From Cyanobacteriota bacterium (GTDB lineage Bacteria > Cyanobacteriota > Cyanobacteriia > Thermostichales > Thermostichaceae): a DNA stretch of 16,984 nucleotides. How positions within the stretch are numbered: position 1 is the stretch's first letter; each line of letters starts with the position of its first letter. Below, piece after piece: positions 5,301 through 16,984 of this stretch. Position numbers and translations under genes: made by a program. The DNA lies in contig JANRIL010000036.1 in NCBI GenBank assembly GCA_033764955.1, forward strand, positions 1 through 16,984, in the 5' to 3' direction. The notes beneath the pieces are model-generated. The model had not been told where the DNA came from. It saw only the letters and a list, made by a program, of their open reading frames with translations, and did not search any database.

Positions 5301-6233
5301 TTATTTTCGAATAGTTATCGTTGTTTCTGAATTCAAATCTTTCCTGGGATCTTTCATATAGCCTGCTGGGAAATAGACGGATTGTGGTGTGCCAATCACA
5401 TCTAAGCAAAGTTCATGATTGTTATCTCCATCCCCCAAATCACCAAGCGCGAAAGGGGTTGCTTCGATTTTGCTGCCATCCTTTAGTAAAACAGTGACCT
5501 TGTATTGAACTCGTTCCACATCGTCAACTTCATCGCCACCCGGCTTGGTAACCCCTCCATTCCAGGTTACACGCACCACTTGCTTGGTGCCTTTAGCACA
5601 GCCGCTGCCACCGCCCCAAGGCAGAAGTGATGCTTCCTTGCCTATGTCCCACTCATCTTTGGGAACAATTTCCGCCCAAACCATAAGTGGGCCTTCTTCA
5701 AGGGGTGTGACATTCACACTCGCGCCCTTGAAGTTCAATGTTCCGTCTAGGGAAAGAAGGTTGCCAGCGATTTCCACTTTCACGGGCTGGTCATTAATAC
5801 TGCCATACCTCCCGGCCAACAAAACTGTCCTGAGTTCGCCGTTATCATCGGCCGGGGCTAGTGTCACGGCCAAAATTTTCCCAACTTTCCCAGAAGCCGT
5901 AGTCACTCTAAAATCTCCGACCTGCATTGTTTCATAATCGACCTCATGGGAAAAAATGACGGGCATGCCATCTGTACCTCCAGCCCCTGGCCAGATCCCC
6001 TGATCAGCCACTTTCGGTAAAGCATCGTCCAGACCGTAGAAGGCTGAAATCAAACCTGCCTGCCATCCATGGCTGTCACGATTTGCCGTAACATTTGTAA
6101 CCGTTGTGTCCACAGGTGATGTATTAGTCAGCACAGGTTCATATGAACGTATTAATCTGTACCGTTCTACTGTGCTGCAACCGACAATAACAATGAAGCA
6201 AAGAAGGAATACTGCAAGCACATATGGTTTCAT
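5301..6233 (-). CDS. Putative lipoprotein of unknown function
   Basis: 310-aa ORF; signal peptide ending in lipobox-like IVGC; acidic motifs DGMPVIFS and DLGDGDNNHELCLD. ATGA overlap with the upstream hydrolase. Confidence 0.8.
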   Translation of the reverse strand: MKPYVLAVFLLCFIVIVGCSTVERYRLIRSYEPVLTNTSPVDTTVTNVTANRDSHGWQAGLISAFYGLDDALPKVADQGIWPGAGGTDGMPVIFSHEVDYETMQVGDFRVTTASGKVGKILAVTLAPADDNGELRTVLLAGRYGSINDQPVKVEIAGNLLSLDGTLNFKGASVNVTPLEEGPLMVWAEIVPKDEWDIGKEASLLPWGGGSGCAKGTKQVVRVTWNGGVTKPGGDEVDDVERVQYKVTVLLKDGSKIEATPFALGDLGDGDNNHELCLDVIGTPQSVYFPAGYMKDPRKDLNSETTITIRK

Positions 6234-9018: not shown

Positions 9019-9339
9019 CTCGTGACACTCTTAAGGTGCTCTTGTGGTTTTGGTGGTTTCGTCGCTATCAATCGCGATCGCATAAACAATTTAGCAATTT
9101 TACTCTTGGCGGACTCGGCGATCTGCATCGATGACTTCAATATGTCTTTCAACAGCCCTCTGTTTCATTTGCCTAGCCATTGAAACCACAAGGCCTCTAC
9201 CTCCACTATCTTCGAGTGCGCCGCTCTGATCACCTCTCAGGACTCACAAACGCAGCCAATAATCCTCATTTACACAATCTGTGCCTAAGATCACCACAAA
9301 GTAGGCACTGGCGTTCTGCGGTCGGATAACGATAATGGC

Positions 9340-9757
9340 TTGAGTAAGGAATTAGAAAATATTCGAGATGAGCAGATCCGGAGATTGGTTTACACACTTT
9401 TGTCGTTCCTCAATCCACGACAAGACGCAATCGTTCTCTACCTTTATCGGGAAGCGACACGCGAGAAGATGGGTTCACGGATCCACTTCAATGTAAATGA
9501 TTTGCTAGAAACGTTAGGCTACTCTAGAGCAAGAAATGGTTTTTTTTCCGGCAAAATATCGTTCTCAGCTTCATCGTGATCTGGTTGCATTGCATCGCAC
9601 TGAGTTATTATTTGCTGGGTCATCGCAGGGTGCTAAAACAGAAGAAATTTTCTGTACAATCCATCCACATCAAACAAAACGATGTCGTGTGAGGAAAAAT
9701 GTCATCATAGCTATTCTTCGTTGTGGTGAAGTGAAATGGTTCCGTGTCTGCGGCTAG
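9340..9757 (+). pseudogene. Frameshifted fragment of a cyanobacterial plasmid-type (possibly replication-related) protein
   Basis: Two short ORFs join by removing one T from the T8 run at 9540-9547, giving ...NDLLETLGYSRARNGFFPAKYRSQLHRDLVALHRTELLFA. The resemblance to plasmid Rep-like proteins is from memory and unverified. Confidence 0.45.
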
Positions 9758-10054
9758 GGGTTAGACCTGCTCTGGAATAAAGCTAGAACGGGGGAAACTT
9801 GGGCTATTACAATGACGGCTTTTTCGATTACAAAAGGAACCCGCCTGCCAGGGACTCCACATTGGCGCATATAAAATTACCTGCTCAATATCAAAACATG
9901 CCATTATTGCTACATGCACACAGCAATTCCCATTTTGACTAGCAACTTGTTCAGGCTGCCAAATCTAGAACGACGGAATAGGTTTTTCAAAAAAGGCTAT
10001 TGAGACTATTCCCAATAAGCTCAAGTAAGATTTTCATAATGAGAATTGTTGACA

Positions 10055-10412
10055 AGCACAAGCTGTTTTAACCTCTTGACAAGCCTAATGCAGCACCACC
10101 GCCGCCTCTCCCAAACGTTCTGGACTACTAGCCTCAACCACCACCAACGACATCATCAACCTCACGCTATCAACGAGGATAAACTGCTTGAGCCCTTTGG
10201 TCTGTTTGCCAACATCAAAGCCGTAGACCTCCCCCTTTTTTTCCTCGTTTTCACCGACTGAGAATTGAGCAGGCCAGTGTTTGCCTGGGGTTTCTTGCCG
10301 ACGGCTTCTCGTAGTTGGACTCTCAGCTCATCAACCACCGCCTGCCAGATGCCCAGTTTCTGCCACAAGCGCAAATAGCCATAGACCGTCTGCCACTTCG
10401 GTAAGTCATTAG
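10055..10412 (-). mobile_element. IS5-family transposase remnant (internal fragment)
   Basis: DLPKWQTVYGY.R.WQK.GIW...NSQSVKT, then an A7G5 slippery run (10231-10242) leading in another frame to EVYGFDVGKQTKGLKQFILVDS...EASSPERLG. Catalytic DSQSVK is decayed to NSQSVK, with an in-frame stop at 10085-10087. N- and C-termini absent. Confidence 0.88.
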
Positions 10413-10498
10413 ATTGAGAAATACCCCGGATCCATAACCTCCAACCCCAAAGATCCCCCAGCAAACATCACCACCACAAACCCCACCACCCGATTCAT
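10409..10498 (-). CDS. 29-aa hydrophobic peptide or gene truncated at the IS5 junction
   Basis: MNRVVGFVVVMFAGGSLGLEVMDPGYFSI*. ATGA overlap with the upstream gene; ends where the IS5 similarity begins. Confidence 0.4.
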   Translation of the reverse strand: MNRVVGFVVVMFAGGSLGLEVMDPGYFSI

Positions 10499-10770
10499 CG
10501 TTTTTGCTCCAACTTATCCAGCCGAGACAGAAAATACTGCGTATGAACCTGATTCGCCGCCGAGATCCGATTGAGTTGATCCACATCCTTCTGCAACCCC
10601 GACAACTCCTGCGAGATCACCCCCAACCGCTCCTGGGTCTGCAACGCCTGTTCCTGCAAGCCAAACCCCAGCGAAACAAGCTTCAGCAACCCCGCCACCA
10701 TCAGCCCCTGAAACACCTTCCCATCCGTCAACCAGCCGATTACCGTTTGAAATTTGCTGTCCATACTCAC
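10495..10770 (-). CDS. Small membrane protein, one TM helix plus coiled coil (holin-like architecture)
   Basis: Hydrophobic VFQGLMVAGLLKLVSLGFGL followed by a heptad-like tail ending SRLDKLEQKR. GTGA overlap with the upstream gene. Confidence 0.65.
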   Translation of the reverse strand: MSMDSKFQTVIGWLTDGKVFQGLMVAGLLKLVSLGFGLQEQALQTQERLGVISQELSGLQKDVDQLNRISAANQVHTQYFLSRLDKLEQKR

Positions 10771-11471
10771 CGCACCACCACAATCTGAGCCACGTCATAG
10801 GATCCGTTCCGCAGCGAATACAACTCCCCATTCACCCGCTGATAGAACTTCACCCCCACCGCCCCCAAGGTCAGCAAAGCCGGATCCATAGGCAACGGCA
10901 CACTCCACTCCACCGGATCCCCTACCACCGCAAACGCCGTCATCCCAACTTGAACCACAGCCAAAAAGTCCGGATCCAAATTCACCTGAGCCACCAGCGC
11001 CACCACCGAGATATCAGTCGTCCCCGGCGGCGCATAAATATCTCTAGGAGCCAGCACCCCACCCCCCATTTTCGCCACAGTGAGCGCATCCCCCACCACG
11101 CCAACAGCCAACGGAGCCACCGAAGTCAAATTCGAGTTCCCATTCAACTCAAACTTAGGCAACACCTGACGCGCCTCGCTAATGGAGAGGATCCGTTTGC
11201 CCCGCTCATGATCCGGATCCAACGCCACCCCAGAGCGCACCACCTGCACCATCCGCCCCGCCAGATAGCGGTCACCCACATCCAGCCCCCGCAGCGCATC
11301 CCGAATCACCTTCGCCTGTTTAGCCGCAATCGCAAATTCCGAATTATTTTCCTTAGTTCGTTCCGCCGTCACCTCACGGGATCCAGCCGCCTTACTCACC
11401 GTCCCTTCCCGACTAAACGTCAGACCACCCACCGTCCCTTGCAGTTGAATAATCCCCGTATTCCGTGCCAT
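10767..11471 (-). CDS. Conserved hypothetical protein (MARNTGIIQLQGTVGGLTF... family)
   Basis: 234 aa from ATG 11471 (alternative TTG start at 11483), AGAGG upstream. Motifs RTKENNSEF..A...K..R.AL and GVKFYQRVNGELYSLRNGSY. Confidence 0.85.
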   Translation of the reverse strand: MARNTGIIQLQGTVGGLTFSREGTVSKAAGSREVTAERTKENNSEFAIAAKQAKVIRDALRGLDVGDRYLAGRMVQVVRSGVALDPDHERGKRILSISEARQVLPKFELNGNSNLTSVAPLAVGVVGDALTVAKMGGGVLAPRDIYAPPGTTDISVVALVAQVNLDPDFLAVVQVGMTAFAVVGDPVEWSVPLPMDPALLTLGAVGVKFYQRVNGELYSLRNGSYDVAQIVVVR

Positions 11472-11527
11472 TTTGGATCCCAATAAACCTCTATTGCCAC
11501 AGTAGTCAGGATCAATTCAGCACTCCA

Positions 11528-11546
11528 GAGCAACTGACTAGGCAAG
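11528..11546. repeat. 19-bp direct repeat, copy 1 (candidate operator)
   Basis: GAGCAACTGACTAGGCAAG, 17/19 identical to 11761-11779. Confidence 0.6.
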
Positions 11547-11717
11547 CACAGGAGCAAGTTTAGTCATGGATTGTTGTGCCAACGGAGAGGGAGAAGACTT
11601 CCCACTTTCCCACCGAACAACTGTGGATGTGGTGCAACCCAAAGCCGCTGCAAATTGTTCCTGAGTCATCCCCAGAGATAAGCGCAATTGTTTGATTTTG
11701 GCTTTTTCCATAGTCAT
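11538..11717 (-). CDS. XRE/Cro-family helix-turn-helix regulator, 59 aa (not in the ORF track)
   Basis: MTMEKAKIKQLRLSLGMTQEQFAAALGCTTSTVVRWESGKSSPSPLAQQSMTKLAPVLA*, a classic HTH_3 pattern. G-rich RBS upstream. Confidence 0.92.
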   Translation of the reverse strand: MTMEKAKIKQLRLSLGMTQEQFAAALGCTTSTVVRWESGKSSPSPLAQQSMTKLAPVLA

Positions 11718-11760
11718 ACCCCCCCTTTTTCGACCCTATCACAGGCATTCTTAAAGACCT

Positions 11761-11779
11761 GAGCAAACGACTAGGCAAG
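11761..11779. repeat. 19-bp direct repeat, copy 2 (candidate operator)
   Basis: GAGCAAACGACTAGGCAAG, 44 nt upstream of the HTH start codon. Confidence 0.6.
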
Positions 11780-11786
11780 TGAGCAC

Positions 11787-11832
11787 CGTTGCCGTATCAA
11801 ATCCATATCGTTGCCGTATCAAATCCATATCG
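11787..11832. repeat. Perfect 22-bp tandem repeat, two copies
   Basis: CGTTGCCGTATCAAATCCATAT x2 plus CG, in the divergent intergenic region between the HTH and Rpn genes. Confidence 0.9.
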
Positions 11833-11941
11833 GACCATCTCACCAGCTCGTAGCGGATCCGCCAGAGGATTTTGCTGCGGTGGGGAAGATTCCCTGTTCG
11901 TTAGTCGTGAAACCGTCGCCATCGGATCCTAAAATGAAACT

Positions 11942-12787
11942 ATGTATGATCCCATCTGTAAATTCCTAGTCGAACACTATTCTCAAGACTTTGCCACTTG
12001 GTTATTAGGGGCATCAGAACCCTTGACTGAAATCAAACCATCTGAGTTATCCTTAGAGCCAATTCGAGCCGATTCCATCATTCTTTTACAGTCGAAACAG
12101 TCCATTTTGCATTTGGAATTTCAAACCCAGCCAAAACGCAATATCCCCTTTCGAGTCCTCGATTATTGGGTACGGATCCATCGCATCTTCCCTGGTAAAG
12201 ATATCGTGCAAGTGGTGATCTATCTGGAACCCACCGGATCCGATAGGGTCTACGAATCTGCATTTGTACTGGGAACAACCCGGCATGAGTTTCAGGTCAT
12301 TCGCTTGTGGGAGCAGTCACCGGATTTGTTTTTACAAGCACCGGGATTATGGCCTTTTGTGATGTTGACCAAGGTATCGGATCCTGAAGCGATGTTACGA
12401 GATCTCAGCCAACGGATCGATCAATTATCGGATCCGCAGATGCAGAGCAATGTTTCAGCAGCAACGGCAGTGTTGGCTGGGCTAGTCTTAGATAATGAAA
12501 TAATCAATCGAATCTTAAGGAAAGACATCATGCGACAATCAGTGATTTACCAAGAGATCCAAGAAGAAGCGATTGCCGAACACAAACAAGAGTGGATCCA
12601 ACTGGGCAAACAAGAAGGGATCCAACTGGGTAAGGAGGAAGGCAAACAAGAAGGCAAACAAGAAGGCATCCAACAGGTCGCACTCAACCTGCTGAATACA
12701 GGGATGGATCCAGCTAAAGTCTCGGCAGTCACCGGATTGACCTTAGAACAAGTGCAACAATTAGCCCTAGACTCCCCATCTTCGTAG
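11942..12787 (+). CDS. Rpn family PD-(D/E)XK nuclease (recombination-promoting nuclease/putative transposase)
   Basis: MYDPICKFL, SELSLEPIRADS, ILHLEFQT, FRVLDY, VIRLWEQ, MRQSVIYQEI, GKQE repeats and a C-terminal helical tail VALNLL..G...AVTGLTLEQV. Confidence 0.93.
   Translation: MYDPICKFLVEHYSQDFATWLLGASEPLTEIKPSELSLEPIRADSIILLQSKQSILHLEFQTQPKRNIPFRVLDYWVRIHRIFPGKDIVQVVIYLEPTGSDRVYESAFVLGTTRHEFQVIRLWEQSPDLFLQAPGLWPFVMLTKVSDPEAMLRDLSQRIDQLSDPQMQSNVSAATAVLAGLVLDNEIINRILRKDIMRQSVIYQEIQEEAIAEHKQEWIQLGKQEGIQLGKEEGKQEGKQEGIQQVALNLLNTGMDPAKVSAVTGLTLEQVQQLALDSPSS
12530..12787 (+). CDS. Putative in-frame intragenic small protein (RpnS-type antitoxin), 85 aa
   Basis: TAAGGA at 12516-12521, 8 nt before an in-frame ATG (MRQSVIYQEI...). 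Covers the repeat and helical C-terminal domain. Confidence 0.55.
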   Translation: MRQSVIYQEIQEEAIAEHKQEWIQLGKQEGIQLGKEEGKQEGKQEGIQQVALNLLNTGMDPAKVSAVTGLTLEQVQQLALDSPSS

Positions 12788-12816
12788 GATCCGCCAAGAC
12801 CGAGAGGACTGAAAGG

Positions 12817-13176
12817 GTGCCCTTCCACCGCAAATCCAAACCCAGCATCATCAAAGACCAGGTGCGGCGACTCGCGCCCAAACTCAGCTACATCTCCGAA
12901 GCCGATGAGCCAGTGAAGTTAGCCCATTACCCCCTAGCGGTGAGCAAACTCTGTGATCGAGTAGCCCAAGGGGATCCGGTTACTCTCCAATCCGGTGAAC
13001 AATTCTTCGAACCGTTGTTGTTGGATCCCTATTGGTTCCGACTGTGGCGACTCCTACAACAAAGCCCCATTCCTACCCAAGTGCTGCGGCTAGGCCAGAC
13101 TCAGCAAGCCATCTTTATCCTCAACGGATCCGTGATTTTGGAAACCCAAGCTTGCATGGATCCAGAAGTGGCTTGA
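12817..13176 (+). CDS. Nuclease A inhibitor (NuiA)-like protein, divergent
   Basis: LSYISEADEP resembles NuiA LLFMSESEYP; central FF; QVLRLGQ resembles QVYRLGE; 119 aa. Confidence 0.7.
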   Translation: MPFHRKSKPSIIKDQVRRLAPKLSYISEADEPVKLAHYPLAVSKLCDRVAQGDPVTLQSGEQFFEPLLLDPYWFRLWRLLQQSPIPTQVLRLGQTQQAIFILNGSVILETQACMDPEVA

Positions 13177-13333
13177 ATCAAGCAAGCGCAACATTTCAGA
13201 TCTCTCAGATTAAAGACCTCACCACAACCAACGGATCCATCCTGGCAATTTTGTAGATCCAAGTTGCTGCACAATGCTTCAAGCAAACGGATCCGATTCG
13301 TTAGGTTAGCAGATGTGCTGTTAAGGGTTCGCA

Positions 13334-13867
13334 ATGACCGTTTTGAACAACAACCAGAATTTTGAAAAAGCTCTGGCCTTCACTCAAAAATGGGAAGGAG
13401 GCTTCGTAGACCATCCTGTGGATCCGGGCGGACGCACCAACTTCGGCATCACCCAATCCACCTACAATCACTGGCGCAACAGCAAAAATCTCAAGCCCCA
13501 AGATGTGAAACGGATCCAACCCTCAGAAGTTGAATCCATCTATCGAGATCTCTACTGGATCCCTGCTCATTGCGCTCAAATGGTCTTGCCCTTGGCGATT
13601 GCTCACTTCGATACCGCAGTCAATTTTGGCGTAACCGGATCCGTCAAGTTCCTCCAATCCGTACTCAAAGTAAAAGTCGATGGCCTCTGGGGATCCGTTA
13701 CCCAATCAGCCTTTGAACACTCAAACTGCAAACATACCGCTCAGCATTTAGTCGAAGCCCGGATCCGTTACCGCCATCAACGAATCCGAGAAAATCCCAG
13801 CCAACAACTCTTTCTGCAAGGATGGCTCAATCGTGACCAGGCTCTTCTTACTGTAGTCATGAGGTAA
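13334..13867 (+). CDS. Glycoside hydrolase family 108 lysozyme with C-terminal peptidoglycan-binding domain
   Basis: WEGGFVDHPVDPGGRTNFGIT (EGG catalytic motif), IY...YW, FDTAVNFG, VDGLWGSVT, FLQGWLNR. Confidence 0.95.
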   Translation: MTVLNNNQNFEKALAFTQKWEGGFVDHPVDPGGRTNFGITQSTYNHWRNSKNLKPQDVKRIQPSEVESIYRDLYWIPAHCAQMVLPLAIAHFDTAVNFGVTGSVKFLQSVLKVKVDGLWGSVTQSAFEHSNCKHTAQHLVEARIRYRHQRIRENPSQQLFLQGWLNRDQALLTVVMR

Positions 13868-13907
13868 ATGAGTCCTATGGAACGGGTGTAATTATGGAGA
13901 TTAATCC

Positions 13908-14195
13908 ATGACCACCCTACAGAAATTAAGTGATCAATTGTGTGAGTTAGAAGCCCGGATCCCTAAGTTAATGAAAGACGGAGATCCTAACCCAGAGCAA
14001 TTGGCAGAACTAGAATCTCAAGCCCATTGGCTGAAAAACAAACTCAAAGTCTATTACTCATTACGCGCTGCCTTTGATGCCCTACCTGAAAATGGTGCTG
14101 GTGAAGCATACGGCGACCTCCTCGACCAAATGGCAGACGTAAAAGCTGCAATCACCCAGAGAGTAATCCCCAGTCCTACGGAGCGGGTGAAGTGA
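13908..14195 (+). CDS. Hypothetical helical protein, 95 aa
   Basis: GGAG RBS upstream of ATG; amphipathic helical pattern; co-oriented with neighbours. Confidence 0.75.
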   Translation: MTTLQKLSDQLCELEARIPKLMKDGDPNPEQLAELESQAHWLKNKLKVYYSLRAAFDALPENGAGEAYGDLLDQMADVKAAITQRVIPSPTERVK

Positions 14196-14207
14196 CCGGA
14201 GTTAGGT

Positions 14208-14369
14208 ATGTCAAGAAGTGGCGATGCGATGATTGATTTCCTAGTGGCACAAGCCGAATGGGGAGCCGCAGATCTCAATGCAACCCAGCGAGACGAATTG
14301 CTAGAAGCCGAATGGGAACAGTGGGAGCAGATGAATGATGAATGCGGATCCCTGGATTACCCAGCCTGA
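14208..14369 (+). CDS. Small acidic protein, 53 aa (not in the ORF track)
   Basis: GGAG at 14198-14201, ATG at 14208, 12 nt after the previous stop. MSRSGDAMIDFLVAQAEWGAADLNATQRDELLEAEWEQWEQMNDECGSLDYPA*. Confidence 0.7.
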   Translation: MSRSGDAMIDFLVAQAEWGAADLNATQRDELLEAEWEQWEQMNDECGSLDYPA

Positions 14370-14486
14370 TGAATGAACTTGGGGTGAGTCTACTTGCCCC
14401 TTTCATGACGGATCCACAAAACACCTAGCCGCCCTTGTCTTGCTCAAGAAAGTGTAGCAAGCCCACCCCGGCACCCCACCCAGCGG

Positions 14487-14506
14487 CTTGACCCACCCAC
14501 CACCGC
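14487..14506. repeat. 20-bp dispersed direct repeat, copy 1
   Basis: CTTGACCCACCCACCACCGC, identical to 15671-15690. Flanked by GCGGC/GCCGC. Confidence 0.85.
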
Positions 14507-14916
14507 GCCGCAACCCCACTCCCAATCCAAAAAAGTGGGAGAACGGATCCGGAGCCTCTTGACCTGACAAAAACCCTACTGATTGGGAAGCACAGCAAAG
14601 ATCCAACCCCTTCCGACCCTTCTCTCTCCTGTGGACAAATCCCCAACTTCCGACTCCCCAGAAGCATCTATTCTCTCTCTTTCATCCCTAGCTATGGCAA
14701 AAGATGGTCAGCGGATCCAATGCTCTGGACTGGAATTCCTTCTGAGAACTGGTAAGCACCGGATCCATTCCATCAAACAGCTCATCAATTCAACCCAGGT
14801 TCTTAACCCGACCAAGGCAGCGTGGATCCTCCTTGCCAGCCGGAAGTTAGGCTTAAATCATCGCGGGCAGTCGGTCGGATCCGGGATCGCCGCAGACTTG
14901 ATGGAACCCAGAACAC

Positions 14917-15094
14917 CCTGAAATCGACCCCTGAGCATGGGAGCTGCCGCGTCTCACAGTCCAAGGGGTGAACTGTACTCTGGCAAAACTTTTTCCTACA
15001 GCGACAGGTCAGAAAAACTTCCAGCCCTACGGGTTGCCCTCGCCCCTTGACCTCCTCTGGCCTTGCTCCCTGGCACGGGGTTATCGATTTCAGG
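14917..15094 (+). promoter_or_regulatory. Long imperfect inverted repeat 1, candidate ssDNA (Frpo-like) promoter
   Basis: Nested pairings: 14917-14927/15084-15094 (11 bp perfect), CCCC/GGGG, 14939-14944/15065-15070, 14962-14971/15040-15049, 14990-14995/15012-15017. TTGACC at 15047-15052. Confidence 0.7.
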
Positions 15095-15104
15095 AGTTTG
15101 TCCT

Positions 15105-15527
15105 ATGTCCATTGAAAAGTCTGCCCTCTCCAGTAAGTTCCGCCCTCTCACCACCCGCGAACGGGATGAACAATCCACTTTCCGCAAACAGCAAGCCGTC
15201 TTTTACACACTTCGTTCCCTAGTCTGGGAAGAGTCTAAAGGTCGCATTTTCAAAGATGCAGTCGATGATGGCACGTTGGATCCGATTGCTCCCCCTATCC
15301 GGCAGAAAGACGGATCCTACAGCCGCCCAGAGTACGACCCGGCTGATATCAAACAGCTCTATGCCGAAGCCTGGGAACAGTTCAAAGATGAGTTCGACCG
15401 TGGCTTCATCAAAGCAAGTCTAGATGAGTTGGTGGAATTTGCCCGCAAGCACTACCAGCATGATCTCGAAAGTCTGTTGGCTCTGAATGCGGAGCGCAGT
15501 GCTGCACGGTACAGTCGAGCGATGTAG
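15105..15527 (+). CDS. Hypothetical protein, 140 aa
   Basis: AGGAG at 15092-15096 then ATG (MSIEKSALSS...); globular charged composition; followed by a terminator. Confidence 0.85.
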   Translation: MSIEKSALSSKFRPLTTRERDEQSTFRKQQAVFYTLRSLVWEESKGRIFKDAVDDGTLDPIAPPIRQKDGSYSRPEYDPADIKQLYAEAWEQFKDEFDRGFIKASLDELVEFARKHYQHDLESLLALNAERSAARYSRAM

Positions 15528-15535
15528 TTACAACA

Positions 15536-15568
15536 AGGCTGGGGGGATCCGTTCTCCTCAGCTTTTTT
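15536..15568 (+). terminator. Intrinsic terminator
   Basis: AGGCTGGGGGGA-TCCGT-TCTCCTCAGCTT stem with G-U pairs running into a T tract, 9 nt after the stop codon. Confidence 0.75.
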
Positions 15569-15670
15569 ATGGCCTCCCCCCGGATCCAAGGCACAGAGAA
15601 AAGGATCCGACCCGCTTCACACGTCGGTCAGTTGTTCAAGTGACGCGGATCCGCCTCACGACTGGGGGAA

Positions 15671-15690
15671 CTTGACCCACCCACCACCGC
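15671..15690. repeat. 20-bp dispersed direct repeat, copy 2
   Basis: CTTGACCCACCCACCACCGC, enclosed by the perfect 9-bp stem CTGGGGGAA (15662-15670)/TTCCCCCAG (15692-15700). Confidence 0.85.
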
Positions 15691-15984
15691 ATTCCCCCAG
15701 ACCCCCGGCTATCGCTCTCCCCTCAAAATGGATCCAGCAAACCCAGCCCAACTGCATGGAGATCTTGCCCAACCCAAACAATCAGGCAGAGTGAACTCAA
15801 CTTGGATCCCAACACCGAAAACAACCATCGTCTAAATGTCACCAGCGGATCTGTCCCCTCCAACAATGCTCATCCGCAGATAGTCCAGAGAGGATCCCTC
15901 ATCAACCACAACCCCTCGGATCCGTGATCACCACCAGCCCAGTCGAACTCATCCGACCACAAGAGAGGGTTAGCCTTGAAACCA

Positions 15985-16170
15985 GGGAAACCGGAATCAC
16001 AAACGCTGGCATCCTGCCTCTGCCAAAACACCCAGTAGGATCCTGGGAATGCAAGAGTCGTTCCCCCACTTTCGCGGCATAGTCTCGTGCCTGCGATATT
16101 CCACGTTGGATGAGCCTCGCTTGCATTAAGGGCAACGGCGAACGAGGAGCCATCGTGATTCCAGTTTCCC
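15985..16170 (+). promoter_or_regulatory. Long imperfect inverted repeat 2, candidate ssDNA promoter
   Basis: 15985-16000/16155-16170 (15/16), TGGCATCCT/AGGAGCCA, 16048-16055/16120-16127 (8 bp perfect), inner TCGCGGCA/TGCCTGCGA. TTGCAT at 16121-16126. Ends 2 nt before the ATG. Confidence 0.7.
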
Positions 16171-16172
16171 CC

Positions 16173-16445
16173 ATGAAATTCAAGTCCGTTCTCTTCTCTG
16201 CTTTACGTCTCGGTTCTCAATCCATGCTGGTACGGCGCTCGACAGATTCCTTCACAGGTTGGGTCGGAGTCTTCCGCTTCTCCACACTGGCAGCAGCAGC
16301 CAACTTCGCTCGTGCTTGGAGTGAGTACAGTCATGTCCAAGCTGGCTCACTATTCCAAGTGTCGGTTCCTGTAGCTGGATTCCCGCGTGAGTTCTGCACT
16401 CAGCCTTGGTTGAGTTTGGGCAAGGCAGCAGCCCTAACGCGCTAG
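16173..16445 (+). CDS. Hypothetical Ser/Ala/Phe/Arg-rich protein, 90 aa
   Basis: MKFKSVLFSALRLG...RRSTDSFTGWVGVFRFSTLAAAANFARAW...VSVPV. Bounded by hairpin 2 and a terminator. Confidence 0.7.
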   Translation: MKFKSVLFSALRLGSQSMLVRRSTDSFTGWVGVFRFSTLAAAANFARAWSEYSHVQAGSLFQVSVPVAGFPREFCTQPWLSLGKAAALTR

Positions 16446-16452
16446 TTGGGTG

Positions 16453-16474
16453 AGGGGCAATTGCCCCTTTTTTT
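16453..16474 (+). terminator. Intrinsic terminator
   Basis: AGGGGCAATTGCCCCT palindrome followed by a T run, 7 nt after the stop codon. Confidence 0.85.
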
Positions 16475-16569
16475 CTTTCCCACCCCATCCCCCTGCCCCC
16501 TTTCCGCAACCCAAAGGGGGGATCCAAACCATATCTTTATAGTGGGGCATGACGATTCTTGAGTCCCTC

Positions 16570-16696
16570 GGATCCCTCTGCACTTCCCCGCACTCTATCC
16601 TGCCAAACAGCCTTGCAATATCGTTCGTCCACAGGGCGCTCCATCCTTGCACTCAGGGCAGGATCTGAACAGTGGGCATCGTACAGAGGACAATCC
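16570..16696 (+). promoter_or_regulatory. Long imperfect inverted repeat 3, candidate ssDNA promoter
   Basis: 16575-16583/16681-16689 (8/9), CACT/AGTG, 16597-16604/16657-16664 (8 bp perfect), 16614-16618/16647-16651. TTGCAC at 16647-16652; the RBS lies inside the stem. Confidence 0.6.
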
Positions 16697-16697
16697 C

Positions 16698-16832
16698 ATG
16701 CACTTAAAGAAACACGAATCGCCCCGCAATCAAGGCCGCAATGATCATGGCAAAGGCGGATCCGCTCGCAAGCGTCAACTCGATAAGCGTCAACGTCAGT
16801 TGATGAATCGTTTGCGAGAGCAACGCGGCTAA
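16698..16832 (+). CDS. Small very basic protein, 44 aa
   Basis: GAGGA RBS 7 nt before ATG; MHLKKHESPRNQGRNDHGKGGSARKRQLDKRQRQLMNRLREQRG*. Confidence 0.65.
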   Translation: MHLKKHESPRNQGRNDHGKGGSARKRQLDKRQRQLMNRLREQRG

Positions 16833-16848
16833 ATTGAGTCACCAGAAT

Positions 16849-16984
16849 GTCGGGTAAGGAAGGAAACGTCACCGTTCCTTCCTCCCCTAAGAACCGGACT
16901 TGACAGTTTCCCATCATCCGGCTCAAGCCTTCCGGCAAGAATGGACATTGATGTGGCAGTGGCGGTGTAGCAGTTGTAAGTTAT
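16849..16984 (-). mobile_element. Group II intron, 3' end (domains V and VI), continuing beyond the window
   Basis: Domain V GAGCCGGATGATGGGAAACTGTCAAGTCCGGTTC (16924-16891; AGC triad, GAAA loop). Domain VI GGGGAGGAAGGAACG-GTGA-CGTTTCCTTCCTT-A-CCC with bulged A, ending ...ACCCGAC at 16849. Confidence 0.96.
16923..16982 (-). CDS. ltrA: C-terminus of group II intron reverse transcriptase/maturase, HNH endonuclease domain (partial)
   Basis: NLQLLHRHCHINVHSCRKA*, the typical end of the En domain. The stop codon overlaps the start of domain V. Confidence 0.88.
   Translation of the reverse strand, partial: NLQLLHRHCHINVHSCRKA

Follow-up and report, generated by a model that had tools for sequence, protein, structure and literature searches.

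The window analysed here is the whole of a 16,984 bp contig of a cyanobacterial genome (DUF1400 and other families were found), and it contains an imperfect inverted repeat, hairpin 1, which ends 10 nt 5' of the ATG of a 140-residue open reading frame (ORF). We propose, with a probability of about one half, that hairpin 1 is a single-stranded DNA (ssDNA) promoter of the Frpo/ssi kind, unrelated in sequence to those, which would direct transcription of the ORF when its template strand is single-stranded and folded. The mechanism itself is already established through the Frpo and pESBL precedents, and what is considered here is a putative cyanobacterial counterpart.

In the proposed mechanism the minus strand, which is the template for the 140-residue ORF, would become single-stranded, with conjugation, transformation and rolling-circle replication as candidate routes, and 14916–15095 would fold back on itself. 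The distal arm would then serve as the non-template strand and offer the hexamer CATGCT, whose A(-11) and T(-7) would have no pairing partner from the outset, with helix P3 upstream, helices P2 and P1 downstream, and a TTG-containing -35-like helix about 17 bp of stem further up. Host RNA polymerase would start at the template bulge at about 15081–15084, with the distal arm of P1 (14917–14927) as the downstream duplex just past the start site, and would exit the hairpin to give an mRNA whose leader is short and whose GGAG is free. Synthesis of the complementary strand would end the activity of the promoter, since the plus strand reads CTGGCA at the -10 position. The two unpaired bases are the critical ones, as A-11 and T-7 are those that sigma captures from the non-template strand.

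The minus-strand DNA fold of hairpin 1 has an energy of -39.2 kcal/mol (z -3.0), equalled by one of 200 shuffles, and the plus-strand fold has an energy of -33.6 kcal/mol (z -2.0). A sequence-only reading of this DNA had described TTGACC, a 17 nt spacer (15053–15069), the plus-strand hexamer CTGGCA, and in the other arm AGCATG, the reverse complement of CATGCT; the letters and coordinates of all of these are exact, and CATGCT does face CTGGCA in a long imperfect hairpin (Table 1). It had also called CTGGCA a non-promoter in the duplex, and indeed a duplex promoter scan makes no call at the -10 and -35 letters of hairpin 1. The mismatch bubble that it placed at CATGCT holds for A(-11), position 3 and T(-7), but position 1 (C, 14939–15070) and positions 4 and 5 (G and C) are paired. 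In the minus-strand ensemble of the window the unpaired probabilities of A(-11) and T(-7) are 1.00 and 1.00. A start placed 7–8 nt past T(-7), at about 15082, would fall on the 3 nt template bulge and leave a leader of 21–24 nt with the GGAG. The inner T-run/A-run helix of the hairpin may be UP-like. As a single sequence hairpin 1 makes a weak case, no more than chance would give, and it is the comparison with relatives that makes the case much stronger.

The compared set consists of 15 regions upstream of the ORF and its relatives: that of the window, two paralogues, and 12 relatives with 43–87% amino acid identity. The paralogues are two further copies of the hairpin and ORF on contig C14 of the same genome, with hairpin DNA identities of 83% and 76% and proteins that are 97% and 95% identical to the 140-residue ORF. 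Among the relatives, L013 (87% amino acid identity), L014 (51%) and L015 (43%) are from a genome collection, and nine are metagenome loci with identities of 46–54%. No relatives of the ORF were found in 400 other cyanobacterial genomes sampled, and none of 42 candidate stretches in viral contigs was confirmed.

All 15 sequences have a long hairpin within 260 nt 5' of the ATG, with its base near the ATG. When the last 220 nt are folded, the z-scores vary between about -1 and -6.6, with values of -4 to -6.6 in L014, L015, L017, L018, L020, and L024. Hairpin 1 is kept in both C14 paralogues and in L013, and the close group (the window, L011, L012 and L013) has a minus-strand consensus fold of 57 pairs, with one CG to GC exchange. 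Within P1 of the paralogues a T:A to A:T exchange preserves one pair, and an adjacent one-base deletion bulges its neighbour. Across lineages the helices flanking the -10 position lie in the same places and differ in sequence, those upstream reading GCTCCC, AGGGT, GTCTGCT, CCCAATGCT, or GCGTT, and those downstream CGGGG, AGGGC, or GCGTTG. A CCCTTGAC box is found at the same place in L014, L016, L018, L021, L022, and L023, as CATTGACA in L019, and as a TTTCC variant in L015. Its complement is always in the distal arm, and the box therefore sits in the stem.

To compare the two arms, the proximal arm of each sequence was aligned with the reverse complement of its distal arm, partly by eye. Five lineages, designated type I, have a hexamer NAnnnT on the non-template arm, located in an internal loop between two helices (Table 2). 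A2 and T6 are invariant in these non-template hexamers and positions 1 and 3–5 vary, and at no type I locus does the facing plus-strand hexamer have both A2 and T6. A -35-like TTG is retained on the non-template arm in eight of the nine type I sequences. The same order is repeated across lineages, namely an upstream helix, A(-11) mismatched or bulged, a paired middle, T(-7) mismatched or bulged, and a downstream helix, and this local order is common in detail to the window group and to the L017/L020 lineage. The unpaired probabilities of A2 and T6 are high in L011 (0.99 and 0.99), L012 (0.79 and 0.78), L013 (0.89 and 0.97), L016 (0.63 and 0.95), and L020 (1.00 and 0.99), as well as in L019, and are weaker in L015 (0.47 and 0.30) and for T6 in L017 (0.04).

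The arrangement was then expressed as a scan criterion: an NAnnnT hexamer whose two key bases each have an unpaired probability of 0.6 or more, with helices on either side, and facing the proximal arm 20–50 nt before the ATG. Matches were found on the non-template side in seven of the 15 sequences and on the plus side in two, compared with eight of 180 dinucleotide shuffles. In the window CATGCT is the sole match, and none of its 12 shuffles matched. The seven matching sequences represent four lineages, which are the window group, L016, L019, and L020; the scan misses L014, L015, and L017, for the last of which the distal arm is incompletely included. On manual reading, L019 and the AT-rich relatives have a second form with 7–8 nt between box and hexamer, in which TACAAT, TATCAT, or TAAAAT each follows AGn. 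A -10 hexamer on the far arm with unpaired key bases is thus conserved and directional, an observation that is probably best explained by a fold-dependent promoter on the template strand, and which partly supports that proposal. This is also the part of the earlier fold-dependent promoter that the comparison backs: the key bases of the -10 belong to the distal arm, and only folding of the minus strand brings them opposite the template arm. The role assigned to TTGACC as the -35 has fared less well and is doubtful, both because the three closest relatives (L011, L012, L013) have TTTCCG in its place and because the distance from the box to the -10 hexamer varies from 7 to 27 nt across the class.

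Table 1. Features of hairpin 1 and of the ORF that follows it, in window coordinates.
Feature	Coordinates	Strand	Remarks
Hairpin 1, whole	14916–15095	-	Taken as folded minus strand, which is the template for the ORF
Base helix P1, distal arm	14917–14927	-	Pairs with 15084–15094; 11 bp perfect inverted repeat
Helix P2, distal arm (CCCC..G)	14928–14933	-	Pairs with 15076–15080; 14932 bulged
Candidate -10, non-template arm	14934–14939	-	Minus strand reads CATGCT; mismatches of A(-11) with 15071 and of T(-7) with 15075
Helix P3, distal arm GGGAGC	14939–14944	-	Pairs with GCTCCC 15065–15070; directly upstream of the -10
TTGGAC, -35-like, non-template arm	14959–14964	-	19 nt upstream of CATGCT; manual reading
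Helix P4, distal arm CAAGGGG	14962–14968	-	Pairs with CCCCTTG 15043–15049 (centroid fold)
Inner part, T-run/A-run helix AAAACTTTTTCC ... GAAAAACTTCCAGCC	14985–15026	-	Common to L015, L017, and L020
TTGACC, -35-like box, proximal arm	15047–15052	+	Part of the CCCTTGAC box common to distant relatives
Facing hexamer CTGGCA, proximal arm	15070–15075	+	Not a -10 in the duplex; no call by promoter scan
Template-strand bulge, 3 nt unpaired	15081–15084	-	15081–15083 or 15082–15084 depending on the fold; between P1 and P2
Base helix P1, proximal arm	15084–15094	-	Final two bases also open the GGAG ribosome-binding site
GGAG ribosome-binding site	15093–15096	+	8 nt 5' of the ATG
140-residue ORF	15105–15527	+	Small family confined to cyanobacteria

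Table 2. Promoter-like hexamers on the non-template arm, the spacing between them, and the facing letters.
Sequence	Non-template arm	Facing strand	Remarks
Window	TTGGAC-19-CATGCT	CTGGCA	
L011	TTGAAG-19-CATGCT	CTGGCA	
L012	TTGGAG-19-TACGCT	CTGGCA	
L013	TTGGAG-CATGCT	CTGGCA	
L016	TTGACA-19-TACTTT	TCATAA	
L017	TAGGCG-20-TATGCT	No hexamer with A2 and T6	
L020	TTGGCG-20-TAGGCT	TTGCAC	
L015	TTGGAA-18-TAGGGT	ATTCAC	
L014	TTGTGG-27-TAGAGT	CCTCCC	Manual reading only
Microcystis p1	TTGACA-15-TATAAT	TAGGAA	
Microcystis p1	TTGACC-7-TAAAAT		
Microcystis p1	TTGACG-15-TATAAT	TAACCC	
Calothrix plasmid2	TTGACG-15-TACAAT		6–7 nt before the base helix
Calothrix plasmid2	TTGACC-7-TATAAT		6–7 nt before the base helix

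Hairpins of similar design are present on cyanobacterial plasmids. A tblastn search with the ORF identified one weak and distant relative, on plasmid p1 of Microcystis aeruginosa NIES-2481, inside a long same-strand array with genes for DUF4326, DUF2493, a zincin-like peptidase, a methyltransferase, and DUF6876. Three very stable hairpins (-61, -99, and -65 kcal/mol) lie in this array, and each has a -10-like hexamer (Table 2) 6–7 nt before a base helix, GCTGAGAGA. A blastn search with one of the p1 hairpins led to plasmid2 of Calothrix NIES-4105, which has two such arrangements. The Microcystis hairpins are at 110.8, 112.1, and 114.6 kb of p1, and those of Calothrix at 344–345 kb of plasmid2. 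The regions concerned, 110.7–114.7 kb of the Microcystis plasmid and 5.9–7.1 kb of the Calothrix plasmid2 locus (L034), contain hairpins of -50 to -99 kcal/mol before same-strand array genes, and the hairpins of the two plasmids share the inner repeats AAGAATTTCTAAG...CTAAGAAATTCT as well as the base helix; in Microcystis, 110316–112167 (1.85 kb) is unannotated. Three things are constant across the class: the hairpin, a good -10-like hexamer carried by the strand that serves the downstream gene as template, and the spacing between that hexamer and the base helix. Since the distance from box to hexamer is not constant, the TTGAC box is not reliably a -35.

A broader reading of these data is tentative, and we give it a low probability. 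Cyanobacterial plasmids and islands may carry their own class of fold-dependent promoters, which would fire from incoming ssDNA arriving perhaps by natural transformation or by another unrecognised route; such a route is suggested by the lack of conjugation genes nearby, by hosts that are often competent, and by the DprA-like SLOG genes in the arrays. As part of the same low-probability reading, a CCCTTGAC box helix would be followed by a -10 that the non-template arm alone carries, and this by a base helix located at the start site, and there would be two spacing types, one of 15–20 nt and one of 7–8 nt with a conserved G at -14. The logic of the leading region would then reach beyond conjugation.

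Several observations weigh against hairpin 1 being an ssDNA promoter. The hairpin is modest, ranking 11th among 420 sliding 220 nt windows of the contig (GC-corrected z -2.0), and at -39 kcal/mol it falls far short of the cut-off of -75 kcal/mol per 300 nt used in mining pESBL. CATGCT agrees with the TATAAT consensus at only three of six positions, TTGACC is replaced in the three closest copies, and a classical -35 is doubtful also for the non-template arm, on which the distance from box to hexamer is 18–20 nt here and 7–27 nt across the class. The 15 sequences amount to roughly eight lineages and are not independent samples; the AT-rich L018 and L021–L023, and L024, miss the scan criterion, and both that criterion and the manual hexamer table were drawn up after the pattern was seen. 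Hairpin 2, which precedes another ORF further downstream, lacks a -10-like hexamer on its non-template arm, and its plus strand has CATCGT. The islands also hold phage-like genes (GH108, Sipho_Gp157, S24 repressor and Toprim), and no Relaxase, TrwC, or clear coupling protein was found in the genome itself, which is 89% complete, with a borderline coupling-protein match on another contig. Likewise, no MobA_MobL was found in Microcystis p1 or the L014 genome, where TraG-D_C matched only below threshold. Finally, a strand test based on the energy difference relative to dinucleotide shuffles leans only weakly to the minus strand, which it favours in 11 of the 15 sequences, with none beyond z -2.2. 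A second strand test, counting single mismatches in Watson-Crick helices, gave none of the plus type, one of the minus type and 28 others, and so has no power.

These strand tests are compatible with folding of the plus strand, and the alternative that survives best, unlikely though we consider it, is that the hairpin acts in RNA. The ORF would then be read from an upstream duplex promoter or by read-through, and the 180 nt leader structure would control translation or stability, or would be a site of processing, for instance by RNase III. The base helix covers half of the GGAG, genes on the same strand flank the hairpin, folding of the plus strand is itself favourable, and there is a promoter-like TTGCCA-17-AATCAT at 14833–14861. 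A look-up of sequencing runs for 14370–16500 listed none. That site is at chance level (one found and 1.7 expected), however, and its segment is missing in both paralogues; L018 and L023 have a terminator-like hairpin with a T-run before the structure, and no Rfam family matches hairpin 1, the group II intron being the sole match in the window at the gathering threshold, with nothing else meaningful at E ≤ 1. Moreover, action in RNA leaves unexplained why A2 and T6 are invariant and unpaired in an otherwise variable hexamer of the minus strand.

Next in order, and improbable, is some other DNA-level signal, such as an origin, an ssi/sso site for priming or for initiating the complementary strand, or a site at which an element-encoded protein binds the CCCTTGAC inverted repeat. 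The box and its complement are the most conserved letters of the class, yet their distance to the -10 hexamer varies, and the inner A-run/T-run helix is also conserved; Frpo itself was reportedly first described as both a promoter and a primer signal. Neither priming nor protein binding requires the base of the hairpin to abut a ribosome-binding site and ATG, as it always does, or a -10-like hexamer to stand at a fixed distance to the base helix, and priming by RNA polymerase would overlap with an ssDNA promoter and not exclude it.

It is also improbable, and ranked third among the alternatives, that the minus-strand hexamers are an ordinary duplex promoter, one that points leftward with its back to the ORF and yields an antisense or non-coding RNA, with the symmetry of the hairpin having some other cause. 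TTGGAC-19-CATGCT on the minus strand, and the near-consensus TTGACR-15-TATAAT or TACAAT on the plasmids, could work in a duplex, but the spacers (19–20 nt here, and 15, 7 and 27 nt elsewhere) are outside the usual 16–18 nt and there is no ORF or conserved element to the left. A leftward promoter also gives no reason why the complementary arm is conserved, why mismatches fall exactly at -11 and -7, or why a helix begins at the start site. That the hairpin is real and the hexamers a functionless coincidence is very unlikely. In favour of coincidence, the single case is weak in its hexamer match, its fold z-score and its unconserved TTGACC, and the comparative criterion was post hoc. Against it stand the invariant A2 and T6 in all type I lineages, an asymmetry that is always in the same direction, the excess over shuffles in the scan, and the recurrence of the design on two plasmids with consensus hexamers.

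Two further ideas were rejected. Composition skew was considered as a sign of single-strandedness and is strong only in two intergenic regions and 9800–11483, not across the paralogous islands; the GC skew of 9800–11483 is very strong (-0.30 to -0.40), and the ORFs there, on both strands, have no family match. A sigma-54 reading of TGGCAC (15071–15076) was dropped as its -12 part does not fit and cyanobacteria are not known to have rpoN.

The 140-residue ORF belongs to a family of 61 clusters in a set of 5.8 billion sequences, all unnamed, and all of those with a named source are cyanobacterial. It has no match in Pfam, PHROG, or NCBIfam, and its structural model is all-helical and confident (pLDDT 89.8), with no Foldseek match at E ≤ 0.001 in PDB or BFVD. 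In the window it lies on an island with an XRE regulator, an Rpn-family nuclease, a NuiA-like ORF, a GH108 muramidase, small ORFs, the hairpin-ORF pair described above, and a second such pair. The C14 islands add Sipho_Gp157, YAcAr/SLOG, DUF3768, an S24 repressor and Toprim, with YAcAr/SLOG and DUF3768 downstream of the paralogues, and one of them adjoins a defence island with DISARM-like and MmeI-like genes. This defence cluster (C14 52–76 kb; L026 and L007 of genome G000), downstream of the C14b island, includes SNF2 and DEAD helicases, an MZB/PLD helicase (DISARM-like), an MmeI-like methylase and target recognition domain (TRD), PIN toxins, and a UvrD helicase. L014 has ArdcN, MPTase-PolyVal, and YAcAr directly upstream of its hairpin, and other relatives have DUF4326, DUF6876, or ParE close by. 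Neighbours such as ArdC, YAcAr/DUF2493, DUF3768, DUF4326, and DUF6876 are typical of establishment and anti-defence arrays. The gene content thus resembles that of leading-region arrays, and no oriT was identified; nor was a relaxase or a type IV secretion system (T4SS) found near hairpin 1.

Hairpin 2 (15985–16170) ends 3 nt 5' of the ATG of a 90-residue ORF (16174–16445), is the most stable 220 nt fold of the contig (z -3.8), and is kept in a C14 paralogue with a compensatory change. The regions upstream of other island genes fold less well. An exact 20 nt repeat occurs four times in the genome, at 14487–14506 and 15671–15690 and once in each C14 island, each time in the loop of a small hairpin; the plus strand around it is rich in C-tracts, and the minus strand therefore has many G-runs and is a possible quadruplex former. 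Some 370 nt between this repeat block and hairpin 1 (14524–14896), absent in both C14 paralogues and present in L013, have their own 27 nt inverted repeat (14642–14668 and 14825–14851) together with the promoter-like letters at 14833–14861.

Elsewhere in the window, a perfect 22 nt tandem direct repeat (11787–11830) between the divergent XRE-type gene (11538–11717, minus strand) and the Rpn-family gene (11942–12787) looks like an operator, and a fragment of an IS5-family transposase (10162–10464, minus strand; NCBIfam, 31 bits with a cut-off of 110) is at the left edge of the island. An unannotated 310-residue ORF (5301–6233, minus strand) contains, at 5521–5860, an unusually stable fold with a z-score of -3.6 and about -45 kcal/mol per 220 nt. 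A group II intron domain V/VI is located at 16849–16926 (minus strand; Rfam RF00029, 59.5 bits), and as contig C24 includes a stretch identical to the final 141 nt of the present contig, the assembly breaks at a repeated intron. The genome has 11,709 copies of GGATCC in its 3.8 Mb, about 12.6-fold over the uniform expectation, often extended to CGGATCC and with many sites in 9300–16984; the hexamer behaves like a species-specific palindromic repeat, and GCGATCGC is enriched only about 2-fold.

Promoters of the ssDNA type let mobile DNA express anti-defence and establishment genes before the second strand exists, and so far they are known experimentally only from conjugative plasmids of enterobacteria. 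Full-text literature searches showed no cyanobacterial case among the titles listed. If the proposal for hairpin 1 is correct, a sequence-unrelated class in cyanobacteria would indicate that the principle is widespread. It would also provide a search rule free of homology, in which A(-11) and T(-7) of the far arm both lack a partner and a helix begins at +1, and the small ORFs behind such hairpins, the 140-residue family among them, would become candidates for a role early in establishment. The way in which these hosts receive DNA in single-stranded form would then become a question in its own right.

Hairpin 1 has features in common with several known elements. Integron attC sites are likewise imperfect hairpins between small same-strand ORFs, recognised as folded single strands with extrahelical bases; this reading was rejected in that attC goes with the upstream gene, whereas the hairpin is tied to the downstream ORF at all 15 loci and the upstream genes differ among them (Gp157-like, YAcAr, CHAT, or a terminator), and the ends of hairpin 1 presumably do not fit the attC R'/R'' core. 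The ssoA-type single-strand origins of rolling-circle plasmids are folded ssDNA in which host RNA polymerase recognises promoter-like boxes in the stem; what they yield is a primer for the lagging strand, and no ribosome-binding site and ATG adjoin them. As folded ssDNA with promoter-like stem boxes hairpin 1 would resemble them, but it abuts a ribosome-binding site and ATG, and no rolling-circle Rep gene was seen in the window.

The closest likeness in design is to Frpo1 and Frpo2 of plasmid F and ssi1–3 of ColIb-P9/pESBL, the class 1 ssDNA promoters. The Frpo stem-loop is reported to reconstitute -35 and -10 boxes, to be inactivated by conversion from single- to double-stranded DNA, and to be needed for early expression in transconjugants (Couturier et al. 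2023). Hairpin 1 shares with these elements a long and imperfect fold of the strand from which the downstream genes are transcribed, a position directly upstream of small same-strand establishment or anti-defence genes and, in the design proposed here, boxes that would exist only in the fold and a promoter that would be lost in the duplex. For the promoter boxes in the stem, hairpin 1 has A-11 and T-7 unpaired and conserved, CATGCT with three of six consensus letters, an unconserved TTGACC, and TTGGAC 19 nt away. It differs from Frpo/ssi in having no sequence similarity to them, in its host phylum, in being shorter and weaker, in a -10 far from the consensus and an uncertain -35, and in the absence of oriT, relaxase, and T4SS nearby. 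By the BLAST criterion of Samuel et al. 2024 no nucleotide similarity was found: a 'distant' blastn search of 13300–16984 against PLSDB (72,556 plasmids, F-type and IncI included) matched the group II intron end alone and was blank over 14900–15110, and a phage collection gave no nucleotide match to the hairpin 1 region. Samuel et al. 2024 list ArdC in their supplement as one of the top 100 families of leading regions, and in the main text and readable supplements ArdC alone is found, with DUF3768, DUF4326, DUF6876, PF12599, and Cyanobacteria absent.

Six hairpin promoters in three classes are described for pESBL, two of the classes without Frpo homology, with starts confirmed by 5' RACE (Nucleic Acids Res 2025, PMC12672017). 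Classes 2 (ardA/klcA) and 3 (M.EcoGIX) of that description were found by structure and, unlike hairpin 1, lie in a proven conjugative leading region and pass -75 kcal/mol, a comparison made by description only. These two classes show that the principle extends to several sequence classes unrelated to one another.

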